Positions 4,131 through 61,950 of a stretch of 64,000 nt of DNA are shown here, piece by piece (within the stretch, counting starts at the first letter, position 1; each line of letters starts with the position of its first letter). Made by a program: the position numbers and the translations under genes. The stretch lies in assembly GCF_002854065.1 (NCBI RefSeq), contig NZ_CP024147.1; one strand, given 5' to 3'. This DNA is from Escherichia coli (lineage in GTDB: Bacteria; Pseudomonadota; Gammaproteobacteria; Enterobacterales; Enterobacteriaceae). The notes under the pieces were generated by a model, which searched no databases, had not been told where the DNA came from, and saw only the letters and a list, made by a program, of their open reading frames with translations.

Positions 4131-4265
4131 CTAACTGATTACCCTACAGACTTACTGGTCAATCAAACTGATATTTGGTTGACCAGTTTTCGTTTTTTTG
4201 CCCACCTGTACGTGCCAACTTCCAGTGCTAATGGTATAGTTTGAGATTAACAGGGGCCGTAAAAT

Positions 4266-12442: not shown

Positions 12443-12509
12443 GTTTAACCTTGTTTGTCATTTTTGTTGTTAACAAGTTAATAACAAAAAGGTGAAACAT
12501 GCCAGCCTG

Positions 12510-15732: not shown

Positions 15733-17013
15733 CTATAAATTGCCGAGGGGGAACAAGGCCGGGAGCTGCGACAGCAAATACAAAATAAGTCCAATACAAC
15801 CGCCAACCAGCGTACCGTTGACACGGATAAACTGGAGATCTTTGCCGATATTTAACTCGATTTGCCGCGACATGTCCCGTGCGTCCCAGCTTTTTACCGT
15901 GTCGCTGATATGGCGAGTCAGGAATGCGGAAAACTCAGGCGCAATGCGGTGTGCGGCTTGTTCCAGATGACCATTTAACGACGCCCGCAAGGCATCATCG
16001 GCAATTAACGTTTCGCCAAACCATTGACCAGCCCGCGCGATACGTTCTTTCACACGAGAATCTTCACTGTTGATATCCGCTTTCAGCCATTCCCGTAAAT
16101 CCCCCCACAATTCACTGAGATAGCGGTTAAAAGCTTCATCTTCTTTCAGATAGCTTTTTACGGCATCGGCTCGCGCCGCCATTTCCGGATCGTTTTTCAG
16201 TTTCTCGATCAGGGCGAAGGTAGCGCGATCAAACGCATGGCGGATCTGATGCGCACGATCGCGGCTGATATCATCAAGCAAAGAATTCACCGCGTCAGAA
16301 ACCAACTCCGCGCTATGTTCGCCCAGCCATTCAGTGGGCAAAATTTTGGCTTTCAGTGGATGCTCGCTCTCCAGCCAGCGAACAATTTGCTGGGCAATAA
16401 ACTTGCGCGATTTATCGCGCTGGAGAAGGGCGATCAACTGTGCGATCAGCGTATCCAGCAGCACCTGATGACGATCGTTTTTAGTCATACTCTCCAGCAT
16501 CAACGCACTGGTGCCAGAAAGATCGACTTTATCAATCGCCCGGTGGACCGCGCGCTTAAGCAGGCGCTGAATACGCGCATCATCGGTTAGTTCAAGAAAA
16601 CCGCTCATGATCTGCAACAGATGCTGACCAACGCGGCGGGCGTTTTCTGGCTGACTAAACCAGTTGCCAATCAACAACGCCGGTTCGTGACGTCGAATCA
16701 ATGCCACCAGCGATTGGGTATCGAGAAATTTTTCCTGCACGAACTGGCCGAGATTTTCGCCAATCCGGTCTTTATTACGCGGAATAATCGCCGTATGACG
16801 AGAAATGATCGGAATCGGCACGCGGCGAAACAGCGCCACCACCGCAAACCAGTCCGCCAGCGCGCCGACCATCGCCGCTTCAGCAATCGCCTTCACGCCG
16901 CTCACCCAAAAATTGGGCGGCAAAAACAGCGTAACGACAAAGGTAGCAGCGGCGATAAGCAGTAAAGAGAGCGCCAACATTTTGGCGCGTCTGAGTTCAA
17001 TGAGTTTATTCAT
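15733..17013 (-). CDS. yjiN: Inner-membrane protein YjiN (DUF445 family)
   Basis: Track ORF 15733..17145 trimmed to ATG 17013 ([25 protein letters not shown]...), 426 aa. Confidence 0.8.
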
Positions 17014-17053
17014 AATGTTAAGAATAGAGCCTGACGGCAGGATCGCGCAAAAA

Positions 17054-18286
17054 TCACCGCTCCTCCGCCAGCTCGGCAGCCTGATGTTGGCGCACGCGAT
17101 TAAGCAATCCGGCCAGGGTGAAAACGACGATAACGCCTGCCACAACGGCTAACAGATGAAACGGCAAGCGACCGCTGTTAAACCACAGCCAGCGGCCGAT
17201 TTCGACCGAGACAGACATCACCATCAGGATCACCATATTCAGCGATGCGGAGACGGTCCCTTTCGGTAAGTTATTGGAAAACAGCGTAAAGCGGAATAAG
17301 GTCGGGAAAATCAAACCAATCCCGAAAGCATACAGACTGGTGCCCAGCACCGACCACAGCCAGACGTGCGGTGACAGCAGATTGCCGATAATCAACAGCG
17401 CGAGGCCAACCAGTTGAAGGGGTACGGCACGCCAGATAAAGCGCGGTTCGGTCGGATCTTTAACGAAACGCGCCACGATGGCATTCGCGACAATCACCGC
17501 GCCGAACACCGGAACCTGTGTCCAGGCGAACTGCGAAGTTGTTAAGCCGCCCGCGTCGATCAGGATCACCGGCGAGACAGCCACCCAACTCATCATGGGG
17601 ATATAGCTTAAAGAGATGGTTGCTGCGCCAAAGAGGAACAGCCGATTGCAAAAGACATTACGAAAATCGCGCAAGACGCTTTTGGCGCTAAATGGAACCG
17701 CGCCGCGCTTCACCGTCTCTGGCATCGCCAGCAGTAAGCCAACAAATGAGATAAAACCCATAACCGCAATGATGGCAAAAAGGACTTTCCAGTGCACAAA
17801 GTGCATCAGAGCTGCGCCGGAAAGCGGGCCAATAATCGGCGCAATCAGTACGATGGAGGTGATAATCGCCATCAACTTGATCCCTTTTGTCTGTCCGAAC
17901 GCCTCCTGCACCGTGACATAACCAACGGTGGCAATAAAACAGATACTGGTGCCCTGAATTGCACGCGCGATAAGAAACTGTGTCATAGACGTTGTGAACA
18001 TTGTCGCAGCGCAGGCAAGGGTAAATATTAGCGCCCCGGTAATCAGCACCGGCCTGCGGCCAACCCTGTCGGAAAGCGGCCCCAGCAGCCACTGCAATGC
18101 CATGCCTCCAGCGAGATAGAGACTGACGGCAGCCGGGGCCAGACTGACATCGGCATTAAAATCACGGACCACATTAATGATCCCTGGCTGGATCAGGTCC
18201 GTCGACAGATACGCAGCAAAGTCATACAAAATCAACGCCATCGGGAAAAACAGCGTGGCGGCATGGCGGGCAAAAAAACGTGGCAT
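17054..18286 (-). CDS. mdtM: MFS multidrug efflux transporter MdtM (YjiO)
   Basis: Track ORF trimmed to [23 protein letters not shown]..., 410 aa. Confidence 0.85.
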
Positions 18287-18600
18287 AACAAACAACTCCT
18301 TGTCCGGAGAACCCCAATGGGGAAAACGAAATTCAATACCGTCGGTAATGACGAAAGGCAGGCGAGAAGGACAAATGTACTGAATTTCATGTAATCAACC
18401 ACACTGCCTGCGAATACACAGACAGAGAAATACCTTCTGACTCCAGGTCAGAATGTATAACGATTACAAATAGTCATCAGCACATTACACCTCTTTAATT
18501 GATGGCTTGCATAGAAAATATACACCTTAAGTGTAATTAAAATTTGGTAATGCTGCCAACTTACTGATTTAGTGTATGATGGTGATTTTAAGGTGCTTGC

Positions 18601-18876
18601 GTGGCTTCCATTTCCATCAGATGTCCTTCCTGCTCCACTACTGAAGGCGTGGTGCGTAACGGCAAAAGCACTGCCGGACATCAGCGCTATCTCTGCTCTC
18701 ATTGCCGTAAAACATGGCAACTACAGTTCACTTACACCGCCTCTCAGCCCGGTACGCACCAGAAAATCATTGATATGGCCATGAATGGCGTCGGATGTCG
18801 CGCCAGTGCACGCATTATGGGCGTTGGCCTCAACACGGTTTTACGTCACTTAAAAAACTCAGGCCGCAGTCGGTAA
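18601..18876 (+). CDS. insA: IS1 InsA (DNA-binding regulator, zinc-finger CPSC...CSHC)
   Basis: Track ORF, 91 aa, GTG start, [37 protein letters not shown]... Confidence 0.85.
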
Positions 18877-19298
18877 CCTCGCGCATACAACCGGGCAGTG
18901 ATGTGATTGTCTGCGCTGAAATGGACGAACAGTGGGGCTACGTCGGTGCTAAATCACGTCAGCGCTGGCTGTTTTACGCGTATGACAGGATACGGAGGAC
19001 GGTTGTGGCGCACGTCTTCGGTGAACGCACTCTGGCCACACTGGAGCGTCTTCTGAGCCTGCTGTCGGCCTTTGAGGTCGTAGTATAGATGACGGATGGC
19101 TGGCCGCTGTATGAATCACGCCTGAAGGGAAAGCTGCACGTTATCAGCAAGCGTTACACTCAGCGCATTGAGCGACATAACCTGAATCTGAGACAACATC
19201 TGGCAAGGCTGGGACGGAAGTCACTGTCGTTCTCAAAATCGGTGGAGCTGCATGACAAGGTCATCGGGCATTATCTGAACATAAAACACTATCAGTAA
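18795..19298 (+). pseudogene. insB: IS1 insB' transposase frame interrupted by an in-frame TAG (expected Trp codon) at 19086..19088
   Basis: Track splits the frame into 18795..19088 (...LLSAFEVVV*) and 19089..19298 ([14 protein letters not shown]...). As I recall it, canonical IS1 reads ...DVVIWMTDGW... through this point. Confidence 0.7.
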
Positions 19299-19439
19299 GT
19301 TGGAGTCATTACCCGACAGCGAGGTGTTTAGTGTGCCATGTCAGGCGAGAAATTCTATTGGATGAATCAAGTCCAACTTACTCATTGTCAATTTCATGGT
19401 TGATTATTCGAAACGTGATGCTATTTCCAACATCAACGC

Positions 19440-19481
19440 TATAATTGCAGAATAATTGTAGATACATTTTTGTATATACAA
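19440..19481 (+). promoter_or_regulatory. Putative brnTA promoter (-10 TATAAT) and operator-like inverted repeat TTGTAGATACA-tttt-TGTATATACAA
   Basis: Perfect tataat at about 19440..19445; 11-bp inverted repeat (10 of 11 matching) at about 19456..19481, just upstream of the AGGGA Shine-Dalgarno of brnT. Confidence 0.4.
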
Positions 19482-19496
19482 TTAGGGATGGCAATT

Positions 19497-19784
19497 ATGC
19501 CAATGGAGTTTGAATGGGATGAAAACAAGGCCAAAAGTAATCGGGTGAAACATGGCATCCGCTTTGAAGATGCGGTGTTATTGTTTGATGATCCACAACA
19601 TTTGTCACAGCAAGAACGCATAGAAAACGGTGAGTATCGCTGGCAGACAATCGGCCTGGTTTACGGCATCGTGGTTATTCTGGTTGCGCATACCATCCGT
19701 TTCGAAAGCGGAAATGAAATTATTCGAATCATCAGTGCACGAAAAGCAGATCGTAAAGAGAGGAATCGCTATGAGCATGGTTAA
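19497..19784 (+). CDS. brnT: BrnT-like toxin (DUF497, RelE/ParE-superfamily ribonuclease fold), 95 aa
   Basis: Track ORF 19470..19784 trimmed to MPMEFEWDENKAKSNRVKHGIRFEDAVLLFDDP...IIRIISARKADRKERNRYEHG; N-terminal FEWDE.K...KHG and C-terminal RIISARKA are hallmarks of DUF497. Confidence 0.8.
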   Translation: MPMEFEWDENKAKSNRVKHGIRFEDAVLLFDDPQHLSQQERIENGEYRWQTIGLVYGIVVILVAHTIRFESGNEIIRIISARKADRKERNRYEHG

Positions 19785-20073
19785 ACATAAACGAGGGACC
19801 TCCTCTACACTCGATGTGCAGCATGAGGCCGAACTGAAGGCGCTGACGAATAAATCCGACGAAGATATTGATTACAGTGATATCCCACCTTCCAGCGATG
19901 AGCAATGGTCTAACGCCGAACGCGGTAAGTTTTATCGGCCATTGAAAACTCAGGCTTCGGTGCGTATTGATGCTGATGTGATGGAATGGTTGAAGCGACC
20001 AGGTAAAGGCTATCAAACTCGCCTGAACGCAATTTTACGTGAAGCGATGCTGCGCGATCAGAACAAAAAATAA
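19771..20073 (+). CDS. brnA: BrnA-like antitoxin (DUF4415, ribbon-helix-helix type), 100 aa
   Basis: In-frame ATG within track ORF 19630..20073: MSMVKHKRGTSS...VRIDADVMEWLKRPGKGYQTRLNAILREAML; start overlaps the brnT 3' end by 14 nt; GAGAGGAA Shine-Dalgarno. Confidence 0.8.
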   Translation: MSMVKHKRGTSSTLDVQHEAELKALTNKSDEDIDYSDIPPSSDEQWSNAERGKFYRPLKTQASVRIDADVMEWLKRPGKGYQTRLNAILREAMLRDQNKK

Positions 20074-20077
20074 TTCA

Positions 20078-20095
20078 GGCCGCCACATGGCGGCC
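20078..20095. terminator. GC hairpin between convergent brnA and yjiA
   Basis: ggccgcc-acat-ggcggcc perfect 7-bp stem; no T-run, so intrinsic terminator function is uncertain. Confidence 0.35.
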
Positions 20096-20106
20096 ATCAT
20101 CCAAAA

Positions 20107-21063
20107 TTACTTCCTCAACCCCGCAAACGCTGCCCGAATCTCTTCCTCCGGCAACTGAATCCCGATAAACACCATTGTGCTATGCGGTTTTTCATCGCCC
20201 CACGGGCGGTCCCAGTCGGCGCTGTAGAGGCGCTGGACGCCCTGGAACAGCAGGCGGTTAGGTTCGCCGTCAATCCACAGCATCCCTTTGTAACGCAGCA
20301 GTTTATCTGCCGATTCCAGAAGCAGGTTTTCCATCACCCGGGAAACTTCGCTGATATCTACCGGGTAATCCAGTTCCACCACAATCGACGAAATATCGTT
20401 TTGTTTATCCGCGATAAAGTGGAAACGCGGTTTGGTGCTGACGACGTTCTCTTCCAGCATAAAACCGTTGGTGTTGAACAGCAGGCCCAGGTCGATGTCG
20501 CCGTGGGTGACGGTGTAGACCGGTGCACGGGCGTTGATGCGCGCCAGGCGTTCACGCAGTTTTTCTGCTTCGCCTGCGACGTCGGTTTTGGTCAGCAGAA
20601 TACGGTCGGCGTAGCCAACCTGGGACTGGGCGATGGTGAACTGGTTCATCTGCTCGTCGGCATGTACCGCATCCACCAGCGCAATCACACCGTCCAGCAG
20701 GTAACGCTGGCATAAAATCTCATGGGAGAAAAAGGTCTGAATAATCGGGCCGGGATCGGCCATGCCGGTGCATTCAATGACCAGACGGTCAAACTGAATA
20801 TTGCCCTTGTCGAGATTATCCAGCAGGTCGAGTAGTGCGTCTTCCAGCTCGTTGGAGCGCGAACAGCAGATGCAGCCGTTGGTCAGCGTTTTGATCTGCG
20901 TGGCGCGGTCGCCAATTAGTTGATCATCAACGGAGACTTCGCCGAATTCGTTTTCAATCACGGCAATCTTGTAGCCGTGTTGTTCGTTAAGAATATGGCG
21001 CAGCAGGGTGGTTTTTCCCGCGCCTAAAAAACCGGTGAGTAGGGTAACTGCAATCGGGTTCAT
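20107..21063 (-). CDS. yjiA: CobW/P47K-family GTPase (zinc-chaperone-like) YjiA
   Basis: Track ORF 20107..21147 trimmed to MNPIAVTLLTGFLGAGKTTLLRHIL... (P-loop GAGKTT), 318 aa. Confidence 0.9.
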   Translation of the reverse strand: MNPIAVTLLTGFLGAGKTTLLRHILNEQHGYKIAVIENEFGEVSVDDQLIGDRATQIKTLTNGCICCSRSNELEDALLDLLDNLDKGNIQFDRLVIECTGMADPGPIIQTFFSHEILCQRYLLDGVIALVDAVHADEQMNQFTIAQSQVGYADRILLTKTDVAGEAEKLRERLARINARAPVYTVTHGDIDLGLLFNTNGFMLEENVVSTKPRFHFIADKQNDISSIVVELDYPVDISEVSRVMENLLLESADKLLRYKGMLWIDGEPNRLLFQGVQRLYSADWDRPWGDEKPHSTMVFIGIQLPEEEIRAAFAGLRK

Positions 21064-21073
21064 GCTCTCTCCA

Positions 21074-21277
21074 TTAACAACAGCGCATACCGCCTTTACC
21101 ATCGCCGCCGTAGCGCGCGTTCTGGCGTTCGCGGAAGAATTCTTCATAGCTCATGTACGGCTTGTCGGGATGGTTGGTCTTCATATGCTCGACGTAGTTG
21201 TCGTAGTCTGGAATGCCAATCAACATCTTTGCCGCCTGGCCGAGATATTTTTTTGCCTGTCCTAAGTTACCAAACAT
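21074..21277 (-). CDS. yjiX: Small protein YjiX (DUF466), co-transcribed with btsT
   Basis: Track ORF, 67 aa, C-terminal MRCC. Confidence 0.85.
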
Positions 21278-21326
21278 AGTTCACTCTGATAAGAACAAAG
21301 CCCCGCCGAAGCGGGGCTAAACACGG

Positions 21327-23477
21327 TTAGTGGTGCGAAGAGATCTTCACGCCGCCTTCCGGGATTGGAACGTACGGTGTTTCTTTGTCAGTACGTTTGT
21401 CGCTGTTACGCACCGCAAGCCAGGTTTTGAAACCGTAGAAGATGATGCTGTACACCACAATCAGGAACAGAATACTCAGGCCCGCGTTGGTGTAGTTGTT
21501 CACAACGATGTGGTTCATGTTGGCAATCTGCTGCGCCGTCAGGTCAGTACCGTTAGCAATCTTCTCTTTGTACTGGCTTGCCATGTAGAAGAAGCCTTCC
21601 ATCTGCGGGTTGGTGCTGAACAGTTTCAGACCCAGCGCCCAGGTGGTGCAGATAAGCAGCCATACAGCCGGAACAACAGTTACCCAGATGTATTGGGTGC
21701 GCTTCATCTTAATCAGCACAACGGTGCCCAGTACCAGCGCTACGGCTGCCAGCATCTGGTTGGAGATACCGAACAGCGGCCACAGGCTCTTAACGCCGCC
21801 CAGCGGATCGACCACGCCCTGATACAGCAGGTAGCCCCACAGACCCACACAGCCCGCAGTACCGATGATACCGGCAACCAGAGAGTCGGTTTTTTTCAGG
21901 AATGGGATGAAGTTACCCAGCAGGTCTTGCAGCATAAAGCGGCCAGAACGGGTACCCGCATCCAGCGCGGTCAGGATGAACAGGGCTTCGAACAGAATAC
22001 CGAAGTGATACCAGAAGCCCATGTCAGCCATCGGCAGCACTTTGTGGAACACATGAGCGATACCTACCGCCAGCGTCGGCGCACCACCTGCACGGTTCAG
22101 GACAGAAGGCTCACCAATGTCTTTCGCGGTTTGCAGGATCTGCTCTGGCGAAATCACGAAGCCCCAGGAGCTGACGGTCGCCGCCGCGTGTGCGGTAACG
22201 TCTTTCAGCTGCGCCATGATGATCGGCGCGTTCTCGCCACCCATTTCATGCAGGTTAGGCATGGTGATGCCAAGGCCCGCAGGCGGGGTATTCATCGCGA
22301 AGTAAAGACCCGGTTCGATGATGGACGCAGCAACCAGCGCCATAATCGCCACGAAGGACTCCATCAGCATTGCGCCGTAGCCAATGAAACGCGCGTCGGT
22401 TTCGTTAGCCAGCAGTTTCGGCGTCGTACCGGAAGAGATCAGCGCGTGGAAGCCAGATACCGCACCACAGGCGATGGTGATGAACAGGAACGGGAACAGA
22501 GCGCCTTTCCACAGCGGGCCAGTACCGTCAATGTACTGGGTCATCGCAGGCATTTTCAGTTCCGGGTTCAGCACCACGATACCCAGCGCCAGGCCGACGA
22601 TAACGCCGATTTTCAGGAAGGTTGCCAGATAGTCGCGCGGTGCGAGGATCAGCCACACCGGCAGCAGTGCGGAAACAAACGCATAGCCAATCAGCGCGAA
22701 GGTAATGGTGGTGTCTTTAAAGGTCAGTGCCGGACCCCAGTACGGATCGTGAGCAATCACGCCACCGAAGTAGATAGAGGCAACCAGCAGCACGATACCA
22801 ATGACAGAGACTTCACCCACACGCCCCGGACGGATAAAGCGCATGTAGATACCCATAAACAGCGCAATCGGTACGGTTGAGCAAACGGTGAAGACACCCC
22901 ACGGACTTTCGGCCAGGGCTTTAACCACAATCAGCGCCAGGACGGCGAGGATGATGATCATGATTAAGAAACAGCCAAACAGCGCGATAGTCCCCGGTAC
23001 TGGTCCCATCTCTTCTTTGATCATCTCACCAAGAGATGCGCCATTACGGCGAGAGGAGATAAACAGCACCATAAAGTCCTGAACCGCACCGGCCAGCACG
23101 ACCCCCGCCAGCAGCCACAGCGTGCCAGGCAGGTAGCCCATCTGCGCGGCGAGAACCGGACCCACCAGCGGACCAGCACCGGCGATAGCGGCGAAGTGGT
23201 GACCAAACAACACGTAACGGTTGGTCGGAACGTAGTTCAGACCGTCGTTGTTAATAACCGCAGGCGTCGCGCGCGTGGGGTCGAGTTTCATCACCTTCTG
23301 GGCGATGTACAGACTGTAGTAGCGATACGCCACCAGATACACCGACACAGAGGCGACCACGATCCACAGGGCGCTGACGTGCTCCCCCCGACGTAATGCA
23401 ACTACCGCGAGGCAGAATGCACCGATGATTCCGAGAATCACCCAGGGTATGTGCTTGAATATCTTTTTAGTATCCAT
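21327..23477 (-). CDS. btsT: CstA-family pyruvate/H+ symporter BtsT (YjiY)
   Basis: Track ORF 21327..23492 trimmed to MDTKKIFKHIPWVILGIIGAF..., 716 aa. Confidence 0.9.
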   Translation of the reverse strand: MDTKKIFKHIPWVILGIIGAFCLAVVALRRGEHVSALWIVVASVSVYLVAYRYYSLYIAQKVMKLDPTRATPAVINNDGLNYVPTNRYVLFGHHFAAIAGAGPLVGPVLAAQMGYLPGTLWLLAGVVLAGAVQDFMVLFISSRRNGASLGEMIKEEMGPVPGTIALFGCFLIMIIILAVLALIVVKALAESPWGVFTVCSTVPIALFMGIYMRFIRPGRVGEVSVIGIVLLVASIYFGGVIAHDPYWGPALTFKDTTITFALIGYAFVSALLPVWLILAPRDYLATFLKIGVIVGLALGIVVLNPELKMPAMTQYIDGTGPLWKGALFPFLFITIACGAVSGFHALISSGTTPKLLANETDARFIGYGAMLMESFVAIMALVAASIIEPGLYFAMNTPPAGLGITMPNLHEMGGENAPIIMAQLKDVTAHAAATVSSWGFVISPEQILQTAKDIGEPSVLNRAGGAPTLAVGIAHVFHKVLPMADMGFWYHFGILFEALFILTALDAGTRSGRFMLQDLLGNFIPFLKKTDSLVAGIIGTAGCVGLWGYLLYQGVVDPLGGVKSLWPLFGISNQMLAAVALVLGTVVLIKMKRTQYIWVTVVPAVWLLICTTWALGLKLFSTNPQMEGFFYMASQYKEKIANGTDLTAQQIANMNHIVVNNYTNAGLSILFLIVVYSIIFYGFKTWLAVRNSDKRTDKETPYVPIPEGGVKISSHH

Positions 23478-23683
23478 AGTAAAACCTGGCATGTATTGAT
23501 TAATAGTTGGCCGAAGCCGTTCTAGGTTTGCGTTGCGTTTGAGGAGGTAAATTGACCGCTATCCTGTAGTGATGTTGCCAGAGTTACGCGCGCGTAAAGT
23601 AAGGTAAATAACTGAGTGGTTATTTTAGGGATGTAAGCGGTCAGTTTTGCGGTTGAGCGGCAAAGGCGTCGTTTAAGTGACGA

Positions 23684-23711
23684 TAAATATGTGATTCATA
23701 TCACATATTTA
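23684..23711. promoter_or_regulatory. Near-consensus CRP site AAATATGTGATtcatATCACATATTT upstream of btsT
   Basis: Perfect 11-bp inverted repeat with TGTGA-N6-TCACA core; CRP assignment is by consensus match. Confidence 0.55.
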
Positions 23712-23796
23712 TATTGTGAGTAATTTATGTAAATAATGGCTTTTTAAATTCAGAGTGTGAATAAAATTACTCGGCGTAATCTCCGCGGGATATTCA

Positions 23797-29296: not shown

Positions 29297-29345
29297 TTTG
29301 TAGGCCGGAGAAGATGTGTAGGTCGCACCTTATGCGACCTACACA
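29297..29345. repeat. REP-like palindromic element downstream of lgoD
   Basis: tgtaggccgga... plus palindrome tgtaggtcgcaccttatgcgacctaca. Confidence 0.4.
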
Positions 29346-29356
29346 TCAGTCAGAAA

Positions 29357-33724: not shown

Positions 33725-33830
33725 ACTGTTTCTCAAATATGGAACGATGAACGAGAAGGGAGATAACTTTTATAGTAACACACGGAGGAGAGGAGGCTGT
33801 CTCTCATCCGTGTGCTTAAGCGAGGCAATT

Positions 33831-54026: not shown

Positions 54027-54287
54027 TTTATGTTCAGCCGTCATCCAGGAAGGGCATATCAGCAACTCTGGTGGACAACCATAAATTTCTGCCATTTTGC
54101 TTTTGATGTTTGAGCTAAACCGTTCCGTCTTTTCGATCTATTTTAGAGAATTAATCGAGATACCTAACATTTTACTTACTTCAGCAAGCGATAATTTATG
54201 CCTGATACGCACGGCGGCTAGCCAGGAAATACGCTGGCTTAACATTAAATTGATAATCTCCCGCTCCTGGTTTTCCAGATCGATCAT
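54024..54287 (-). pseudogene. Relic XRE-family HTH reading frame interrupted by an in-frame amber codon, downstream of lplA
   Basis: ATG at 54287 with AAGGAAGGG Shine-Dalgarno: MIDLENQEREIINLMLSQRISWLAAVRIRHKLSLAEVSKMLGISINSLK-TAG(54138..54140)-IEKTERFSSNIKSKMAEIYGCPPELLICPSWMTAEHK*; reading through the TAG gives a complete XRE-type HTH plus helix, with no kinase or other domain following. Confidence 0.5.
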
Positions 54288-54318
54288 ATTCCCTTCCTTT
54301 GGTATTTTAATCAGCGAG

Positions 54319-55335
54319 TTACCTTACCGCCCCCGCTATCCACGTCGACAACTCCCGTAGCTCTTTTTCCTGGTCCGGGAAGTCAACCAACAGCGCTTCG
54401 CACTCTTGTTGCAGCATATCCGCGCGGTACAGGCAGCCTTGCAGTCGCCCGGCGAGGGCTTCCAGCGGCGCGGGGTTGAGGCTGTCGGTAAACACCTGGG
54501 CGCGGGTGATATGGCCTTTTTCAACGTCGAAATGCAGTTCCACGCCGCCCCAGGTAAAGCGTTCATCCAGCAGATGCGAGAATGCCGGAGCCTGACCGAA
54601 GTTCCATTCCCAGCTACTCTGGCGGGCAAAGGTTTCGGCGAAGTTCGGCAAGTCTGGCGTTTTGTCCGGGGAGATGATTTCCGCTTCTACACGCTCGCCA
54701 TAATGAGCGAAAAAGGCCTCGGTTATGGCCTCGCAAACCTGCTCATGGGTGATCCCCGGCAACAGCTCGGTGAGGTTGGTCACGCGGGAACGTACCGACG
54801 TAATGCCTTTCGCCGCCAGTTTCTTTTTATCCGGATTGAGATAGTTTGCCAGGCGACTAAGGTCGGCATTGAGCAGCAAGGTGCCGTGGTGGAAGCCACG
54901 ATCTTTGGTTTCGCGATAGGCCGATCCTGAGACTTTGCGGTCGCCTTCGGCGGTTTTCACCACCAGATCGTTACGCCCGGACGCTTCGGCGCTGACGCCA
55001 AGCGCGTTCAGCGCATTGAGCACAATCGACGTGGAGATGGTTTTATCGTACTCCGGCTTGCCAGCCATAAAGGTAAAGCAGGTATTGCCGAGATCGTGGA
55101 ACACCGCGCCGCCACCGCTACTGCGCCGTGCCAGGCGGACGTTATCTTCTTCCATCCGCCGGGTATTACACTCTTTCCACGGGTTCTGCGCGCGACCAAT
55201 CACTACCGTGTCGGCATTGCGCCAGAGAAACAGAACGCGCTGCGTGGCGGGCATCTGGCGAAAAATACACTCCTCCACCGCCAGGTTAAACCACGGGTCG
55301 TAAGAGTCAGAGATGAGCAGGCGTAATGTGGACAT
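54319..55335 (-). CDS. lplA: Lipoate-protein ligase A
   Basis: Track ORF, 338 aa, [28 protein letters not shown]... Confidence 0.95.
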
Positions 55336-61740: not shown

Positions 61741-61950
61741 GTTGGACTTCGCCTCTATGTTTATCGTGATGATGAGTTTTCAAAGGCGAAGTGTAGCCTT
61801 TTTCCCCGCCTAATCCCAGTTGGTCGATCACCTTCGCAGTAAAAGTAAAAAAGTGTCCGTAACGTGGCGTAAACGGCAATGACTGGTTAGCATAAATCTA
61901 TTACGCGGCATGACGCTGCATTGATGTATTTACACTTAGAGGATGCGCTT

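Follow-up and report, generated by a model that had tools for sequence, protein, structure and literature searches.

A probable BrnT/BrnA-family toxin–antitoxin operon with a conserved candidate operator at the yjiA edge of an Escherichia coli restriction hotspot

Two small overlapping genes next to yjiA in a 64,000-nt stretch of Escherichia coli DNA (the window, by which we mean the whole stretch analysed) very probably form a BrnT/BrnA-family type II toxin–antitoxin operon that is intact and fixed in the chromosome, a reading to which we assign a probability of about 85%. The pair, its family and its mechanism are already known, as an earlier sequence-only reading of this DNA rightly said of the family: RefSeq names these exact proteins, listing identical sequences as ‘BrnT family toxin’ and ‘BrnA antitoxin family protein’, and a complex of the Salmonella counterparts is available as a structure deposited under the title ‘Toxin - Antitoxin complex from Salmonella enterica serovar Typhimurium’ (PDB 7VD7). 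In the proposed mechanism, brnT and brnA would be co-transcribed from a promoter with its −10 element TATAAT at 19440 and would be translationally coupled through a 14-nt overlap. Free BrnT would act as a small RelE-like ribonuclease that arrests translation, and the N-terminal and central segment of BrnA would wrap around the toxin and thereby block it. The C-terminal ribbon-helix-helix of BrnA would dimerise and bind two TGTATATACA-type boxes located just downstream of the −10, where the BrnTA complex would repress its own operon; loss or degradation of BrnA would free BrnT. The RNase activity, neutralisation and DNA binding that this scheme ascribes to the E. coli pair are extrapolated from work on Brucella abortus and from the 7VD7 complex, and our literature search found no experiment on this E. 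coli brnTA pair.

The first gene, brnT (19497–19784 including the TAA stop, + strand; defined by its ORF and translation), codes for a BrnT-family (DUF497) toxin and predicted ribonuclease. Its 95-aa product, MPMEFEWDENKAKSNRVKHGIRFEDA...RIISARKADRKERNRYEHG, matched the Pfam BrnT_toxin model (PF04365, DUF497) at E 4.7e-24 over model positions 1–77 of 77 and contained all the DUF497/BrnT hallmarks that had been picked out by eye, FEWDENKA, KHGIRFEDA and RIISARKA. A phmmer comparison with PDB sequences matched it to chain A of 7VD7 (E 4e-52, ~85% identity) and to B. abortus BrnT (3U97; E 1.6e-4). PMC5086665 reports that RNase activity of the B. abortus toxin needs D6, E7, K9, R41 and E78, and PMC13284704 describes K16, H17 and R72 as contributing to its toxicity. 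D8, E9, K11, R48 and E88 of the window BrnT align with the first set and K18, H19 and R82 with the second, all eight residues being present. Seven of the eight were invariant in a 10-sequence alignment that included B. abortus; the remaining one, E9, varies between alleles and cannot be essential to the clade because Salmonella and other E. coli alleles have alanine there. An NCBIfam scan matched neither BrnT nor BrnA.

The second gene, brnA (19771–20073, + strand; defined by its ORF and Pfam match), codes for a 100-aa BrnA-family (DUF4415) antitoxin, MSMVKHKRG...SVRIDADVMEWLKRPGKGYQTRLNAILREAMLRDQNKK, in which both of the DUF4415/BrnA hallmarks noted previously, RIDADVMEWLK and GKGYQTRLNAILR, were found. 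Its match to Pfam BrnA_antitoxin (PF14384, DUF4415; E 3.1e-17) ran over model positions 1–68 of 68, so that the profile-HMM search suggested with the sequence-only reading, once run, placed both proteins in PF04365 and PF14384 over the full models. Residues 14–57 matched chain B of 7VD7, labelled ‘antitoxin’, with 73% identity (E 5e-16). The C-terminal residues 59–94 were near-invariant among nine homologues, with the consensus ...SVRIDADV..WLK..GKGYQTR.N.ILR.AML, and the toxin-binding part was variable. An AF2 model of the monomer, of modest confidence (pLDDT 66), placed an extended segment at residues 61–67 followed by helices at 68–74 and 81–99, a ribbon-helix-helix-like order in which the strand would need a dimer in order to pair; neither Foldseek nor a PDB profile search matched a solved ribbon-helix-helix structure to the C-terminal domain. 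The C-terminal part of BrnA is a predicted ribbon-helix-helix DNA-binding domain, an assignment that draws on this model and on the Pfam family and is no more than weakly confirmed; by analogy the N-terminal and central part presumably binds the toxin.

The sequence confirmed the reported arrangement of two small genes with the toxin gene first and an overlap of exactly 14 nt (19771–19784), which suggests translational coupling of brnT and brnA. The brnA start used here is the same as that in the PGAP annotation of strain M217. A ribosome-binding site, TAGGGA (19483–19488, + strand), lies 8 nt before the brnT ATG and is kept in Salmonella, and the Shine-Dalgarno sequence of brnA, GAGGA (19760–19764, + strand), lies inside brnT, 6 nt before the brnA ATG. 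The toxin-first layout, with overlapping or abutting genes, was found in all nine relatives examined. Between the convergent brnA and yjiA genes, a G+C-rich hairpin, GGCCGCC-ACAT-GGCGGCC (20078–20095), is followed by a T-run on the − strand only, and a terminator scan likewise called the − strand only; by these features the hairpin is a clear predicted terminator of yjiA, and for brnTA it would be weak at best. An Rfam scan of 17000–21500 returned only sub-threshold chance matches (E ≥ 0.4).

Upstream of brnT, the promoter claimed from the letters held up in part: the candidate −10 hexamer TATAAT (19440–19445, + strand) is perfect and the same hexamer occurs in Salmonella, but a recognisable −35 element is absent, and a consensus promoter scan called no + strand promoter at this position because no acceptable −35 precedes the TATAAT. 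Downstream of the hexamer lies an inverted repeat (19453–19484) with 14-nt arms (19453–19466 and 19471–19484) that are complementary at 13 of 14 positions and are separated by a 4-nt TTTT spacer. The 11-bp inverted repeat originally described corresponds to its inner arms (19456–19466 and 19471–19481), which do pair, at 10 of 11 positions; the element is, however, better described as two tandem self-palindromic 10-bp boxes than as one hairpin. About six sites of the 64-kb window carry repeats of this strength (14-nt arms, 13 or more matches, loop ≤10), and ten random sequences generated with a first-order Markov model had none, so that such repeats exceed chance in the window. Candidate operator box 1, TGTAGATACA (19457–19466), departs from the self-palindrome TGTATATACA at a single position, and candidate operator box 2 (19471–19480) is TGTATATACA itself, the core of a 12-bp palindrome, TTGTATATACAA. 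Both boxes are 10 bp long and self-palindromic, box 1 nearly so, they are spaced 14 bp centre to centre, and both fall inside the inverted repeat, after the −10 and before the ribosome-binding site. A third, isolated match with one mismatch at 61925 is at chance level for 64 kb.

The proposal that this palindrome is an operator was strengthened by its conservation across distant relatives. TTGTATATACAA precedes the start of brnT by 22–27 nt in E. coli, on the Salmonella chromosome and on Klebsiella, Xenorhabdus and Acinetobacter plasmids, and recognisable variants of the box occurred on S. diarizonae, Xylella, Moraxella and Iodobacter plasmids, the flanking DNA being unrelated. E. coli and Salmonella differ at one base in the 37-nt operator stretch ATAATTGTA(G/T)ATACATTTTTGTATATACAATTAGGGA. 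Such conservation is a clear phylogenetic footprint and fits two ribbon-helix-helix dimers sitting side by side downstream of the −10. Binding of the putative boxes by BrnA or BrnTA would parallel the situation in B. abortus, in which both BrnA and BrnTA are reported to bind their own promoter (PMC11980606, PMC5086665 and PMC10714953). The RNA of 19450–19520 was predicted to fold at −16.4 kcal/mol (z = −3.5); if transcribed, the repeat would give a stable 5′ UTR hairpin, which we treat as a side effect of the palindrome. Two other elements were considered and rejected. An outer inverted repeat, ATAATTGC...GCAATTAT (19441–19448 and 19491–19498), was discarded as an operator, being broken in strain ATCC 25922 and absent in Salmonella, and an alternative promoter inside the repeat, TTGTAG-15 nt-TACAAT, would leave the ribosome-binding site no room.

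At the level of the locus, brnTA is preceded by mdtM (17054–18286, − strand) and a degenerate IS1 with an internal stop in insB (18546–19313, + strand; defined by translation and ends), and is followed by yjiA (20107–21063, − strand), yjiX and btsT. PGAP annotates the element as ‘IS1 family transposase, frameshifted; internal stop’, its ends carry no target-site duplication, and positions 17000–21200 of the window are 99.8% identical to strain M217. In ATCC 25922, mdtM and brnT are separated by an rpn gene, yjiR, yjiS and symE, together with a type I restriction system and one more restriction endonuclease, and BLAST breakpoints showed that IS1 replaces 11,269 bp of this layout. The exact IS1|brnTA junction was found in 1112 genomes. 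IS1 thus marks the deletion that emptied the hotspot, giving a common old haplotype, and the arrangement is not strain-specific because so many genomes have it in common. The description of brnTA as the ‘sole cargo’ of the hotspot is therefore literally correct, apart from the degenerate IS1, but reflects the IS1-associated loss of ~11.3 kb of restriction genes of which it is a by-product, and says nothing special about the module itself. IS1 ends at 19313, 183 bp upstream of brnT, and the halt of the deletion short of brnTA is a suggestive hint at locus stabilisation, although it represents a single event. K-12 lacks the brnTA locus: mrr abuts yjiA there, and similarity to the window starts precisely with the yjiA stop codon (20107), so that brnTA belongs to the variable DNA of the hotspot.

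Of 5426 complete E. coli genomes, 2112 carry the 811-bp locus, as a single copy each time, and yjiA lay under the match in all matches listed bar one weak partial match; the other 61% of genomes, K-12 among them, are without it. A sole ‘phage’ match to the locus was dismissed, the sequence in question being a 501-kb Salmonella chromosomal contig. Among the 2112 carriers, brnA was at least 80% covered in 2110 and brnT in 1780, where brnA coverage was counted on the part not overlapping brnT and the counts are blind to point mutations and frameshifts. About 330 carrier genomes (~16%) have brnT truncated or deleted with brnA kept, as exemplified by an internal 167-bp brnT deletion next to an intact brnA and by a recombination breakpoint at 19722 that left only brnA, behind a Fic-family gene. 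The reverse pattern, brnT kept and brnA lost, was not seen. Loss of the toxin with retention of the antitoxin is the pattern that would be expected if the toxin is active. Selection to keep the toxin is nevertheless not universal, as the ~16% of carriers without brnT demonstrate.

The same losses, together with the absence of the locus from most E. coli genomes, could be read as signs that brnTA is a decaying relic without present function, whose open but inert genes are simply carried beside yjiA. We consider this very improbable. A within-E. coli dN/dS of 0.26–0.43 for brnT might seem to favour a relic, but the substitutions are too few for the ratio to be informative, and between E. coli and Salmonella dN/dS was 0.02 for brnT and 0.07 for brnA, in the range of the 0.08 for yjiA. 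The corresponding dS values were >3 (saturated) for brnT, 1.3–1.6 for brnA and 0.65 for yjiA, and the operator has been kept while synonymous sites became saturated. Both reading frames are intact in the window, the residues aligned with the important ones are all present, and a one-sided loss in which the toxin goes first is not what an inert pair would give under neutral decay. Taken together, the one-sided decay and the low dN/dS argue for a working pair.

As to what a working pair does, the most likely role is that of a selfish module, for addiction or for stabilising the locus, at the edge of the restriction hotspot next to yjiA, favoured because relatives are abundant on plasmids, where the examples inspected lie beside replication or mobilisation genes in a classical addiction context. 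BrnTA relatives were found in 766 records of a plasmid collection, 563 of them from Acinetobacter, and many of these plasmids are small and non-conjugative. A dedicated role in phage defence is less likely. The pair had been put forward as an abortive-infection or defence candidate, and if it acted mainly against phages, shut-off of transcription by the phage would deplete BrnA and the freed BrnT would degrade RNA, aborting the infection. The setting is compatible with such a function, since restriction systems of types I and IV occupy the hotspot in Salmonella and other E. coli, some RelE-superfamily type II toxin–antitoxin pairs do act in this way (PMC11980606), and PHROGs includes BrnT-like and BrnA-like families, so phages carry such modules too. 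We regard it as unlikely all the same, and the candidacy was left unsupported: no PADLOC-DB v2 family matched BrnT or BrnA at E up to 0.1, the literature searched describes no anti-phage activity for BrnTA, and in a survey of the RelE/ParE superfamily BrnT figures solely as an RNase whose dependence on the ribosome is not known (PMC11980606). In addition, the relatives on small plasmids fit addiction, and the module persists in the 1112 genomes in which the neighbouring restriction genes have all been deleted.

A stress-response or persistence switch, in which stress would induce brnTA and BrnT would slow growth as reported for Brucella, appears comparably doubtful. As summarised in PMC10714953, chloramphenicol, peroxide and low pH all induce transcription of B. 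abortus brnTA; the sequence of the E. coli locus, however, offers nothing that bears on such a role, deletion of chromosomal toxin–antitoxin pairs usually gives no stress phenotype (PMC7280312), and the patchy presence of the locus in E. coli speaks against a core physiological function. More speculatively, and with a small likelihood, the chromosomal copy could serve as an anti-addiction device that cross-represses, and perhaps cross-neutralises, plasmid brnTA, or could shield the yjiA side of the hotspot by acting as a deletion stop. Cross-repression is conceivable because the DNA-binding domain of BrnA and the TGTATATACA operator are near-identical in the chromosomal and plasmid copies, and if the anti-addiction proposal were true, the ~330 brnA-only E. 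coli genomes would be especially suited to such a function. Neither role has been reported for BrnTA in the literature searched. The selfish addiction or locus-stabilising module thus stays our preferred role for the operon.

The discovery weight of these results is small, as the family and its mechanism are public, and so is a crystal structure of the Salmonella pair. The gain is descriptive and consists of a candidate operator, made of two TGTATATACA-type boxes, that is common to the chromosomal and plasmid BrnTA modules of the clade, of population evidence that points to an active toxin, lost first with the antitoxin kept, and of the finding that one fifth of complete E. coli genomes have lost the whole restriction cluster of the hotspot by an IS1-associated deletion that ends shortly before brnTA.

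The closest known system is STM4528/STM4529 of Salmonella Typhimurium, which occupies the same chromosomal position, between mrr and yjiA, and has the same toxin-first overlapping layout. Its toxin is ~85% identical to that of E. coli and the crystallised fragment of its antitoxin 73% identical, and the synonymous divergence between the two pairs is far above that of the neighbouring yjiA. Our literature search returned nothing useful on 7VD7 or STM4528/4529. The annotated start of the Salmonella brnA is two codons later, which gives an overlap of 8 nt compared with 14 nt in E. coli. In the control region, the distance from TATAAT to box 1 is again 11 nt, with different bases in between, and the same two boxes follow at the same spacing; both are perfect TGTATATACA sequences in Salmonella, whereas box 1 of E. 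coli has one mismatch.

In B. abortus, BrnA neutralises BrnT by direct binding in a 2:2 complex. This founding member of the family (Heaton et al. 2012; PDB 3U97) belongs to the same two Pfam families and also has the toxin gene first. Its toxin is ~34% identical to that of E. coli, and the residues required for RNase activity and toxicity align and are kept, the E. coli protein differing by a ~10-residue insertion at ~31–41 and a longer C-terminal tail. According to PMC11980606 and PMC5086665, B. abortus BrnA has a C-terminal DNA-binding domain and autoregulates its operon.

A further set of close relatives consists of the BrnTA modules carried by small plasmids of Klebsiella/Citrobacter, Xenorhabdus, Salmonella diarizonae and Acinetobacter, the toxins of which are 59–72% identical to that of E. 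coli. Their BrnA proteins have a DNA-binding domain near-identical to that of the E. coli antitoxin and a much more diverged toxin-binding part. The Klebsiella (K. aerogenes), Xenorhabdus and Acinetobacter plasmids carry the same TTGTATATACAA box and the S. diarizonae plasmid carries the variant ATGTATATACGG, and the number and arrangement of sites vary: a single full box with a downstream half-site, TGTATTT, occurs on the Klebsiella, Xenorhabdus and S. diarizonae plasmids, and the Acinetobacter plasmid combines one full box with two upstream TGTGATACA sites, in contrast to the two boxes of E. coli. The plasmid modules inspected lie beside replication or mobilisation genes, whereas the E. coli pair is chromosomal.

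The restriction-gene hotspot between mdtM and yjiA was found to be largely emptied, with a degenerate IS1 (18546-19313), its insB interrupted by an internal stop, standing in place of 11,269 bp that in strain ATCC 25922 comprise an rpn gene, yjiR, yjiS, symE, a type I restriction system and a restriction endonuclease. Comparison of the flanks (18520-18546 and 19314-19345) revealed no target-site duplication at the IS1 ends. The exact junction between IS1 and brnTA was shared by 1112 of the 5426 complete E. coli genomes.

In the brnT promoter, two tandem copies of an 11-nt direct repeat, ATAATTGCAGA / ATAATTGTAGA (19441-19462), overlap the candidate −10 hexamer. One repeat copy was absent from the toxin-truncated allele of strain WP5-S18-ESBL-07, and its loss re-formed a TATAAT sequence immediately against the putative operator box 1 (19457-19466). 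Disruption of the toxin gene was observed in about 330 E. coli genomes that retain a full-length brnA, either by an internal 167-bp deletion (allele L005, 6001-6627, equivalent to window 19600-19766) or by replacement of brnT up to a breakpoint within the gene (allele L006, 6001-6389, in which the replaced part corresponds to the sequence upstream of window 19722); in one disrupted case, Fic-family and GmrSD genes were the upstream neighbours. The brnA copies in these genomes are orphan antitoxins.

At the other end of the module, a hairpin located between the convergent brnA and yjiA genes (20078-20095) carried a T-run on the yjiA side only. Because the final brnA codons (…CAGAACAAAAAATAA) encode this T-run, the yjiA terminator overlaps the brnA end in this haplotype; the K-12 sequence at the hairpin position differs. 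The five other strong short inverted repeats of the window, with 14-nt arms and 13-14 matches (29312-29348, 23682-23713, 12461-12490, 4154-4187 and 33779-33814), are probably terminators or REP-type elements. Just downstream of lplA, the minus strand contained a short 49-aa helix-turn-helix ORF remnant (~54100-54360); the M217 annotation classes it as a pseudogene interrupted by an internal stop. K-12 carries the HipA-like kinase gene yjjJ/hipH at the same place, so this ORF may be what is left of a further toxin-type gene.

Finally, we compared the E. coli module (19497-20073) with its Salmonella copy (L008, 8001-8577). Synonymous divergence, estimated from small counts, exceeded 3 for brnT and reached 1.3-1.6 for brnA, while dS of the adjacent yjiA (~0.65) was well below both values. 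The brnTA alleles of E. coli and Salmonella may either predate the species split or represent separate acquisitions at the same site.
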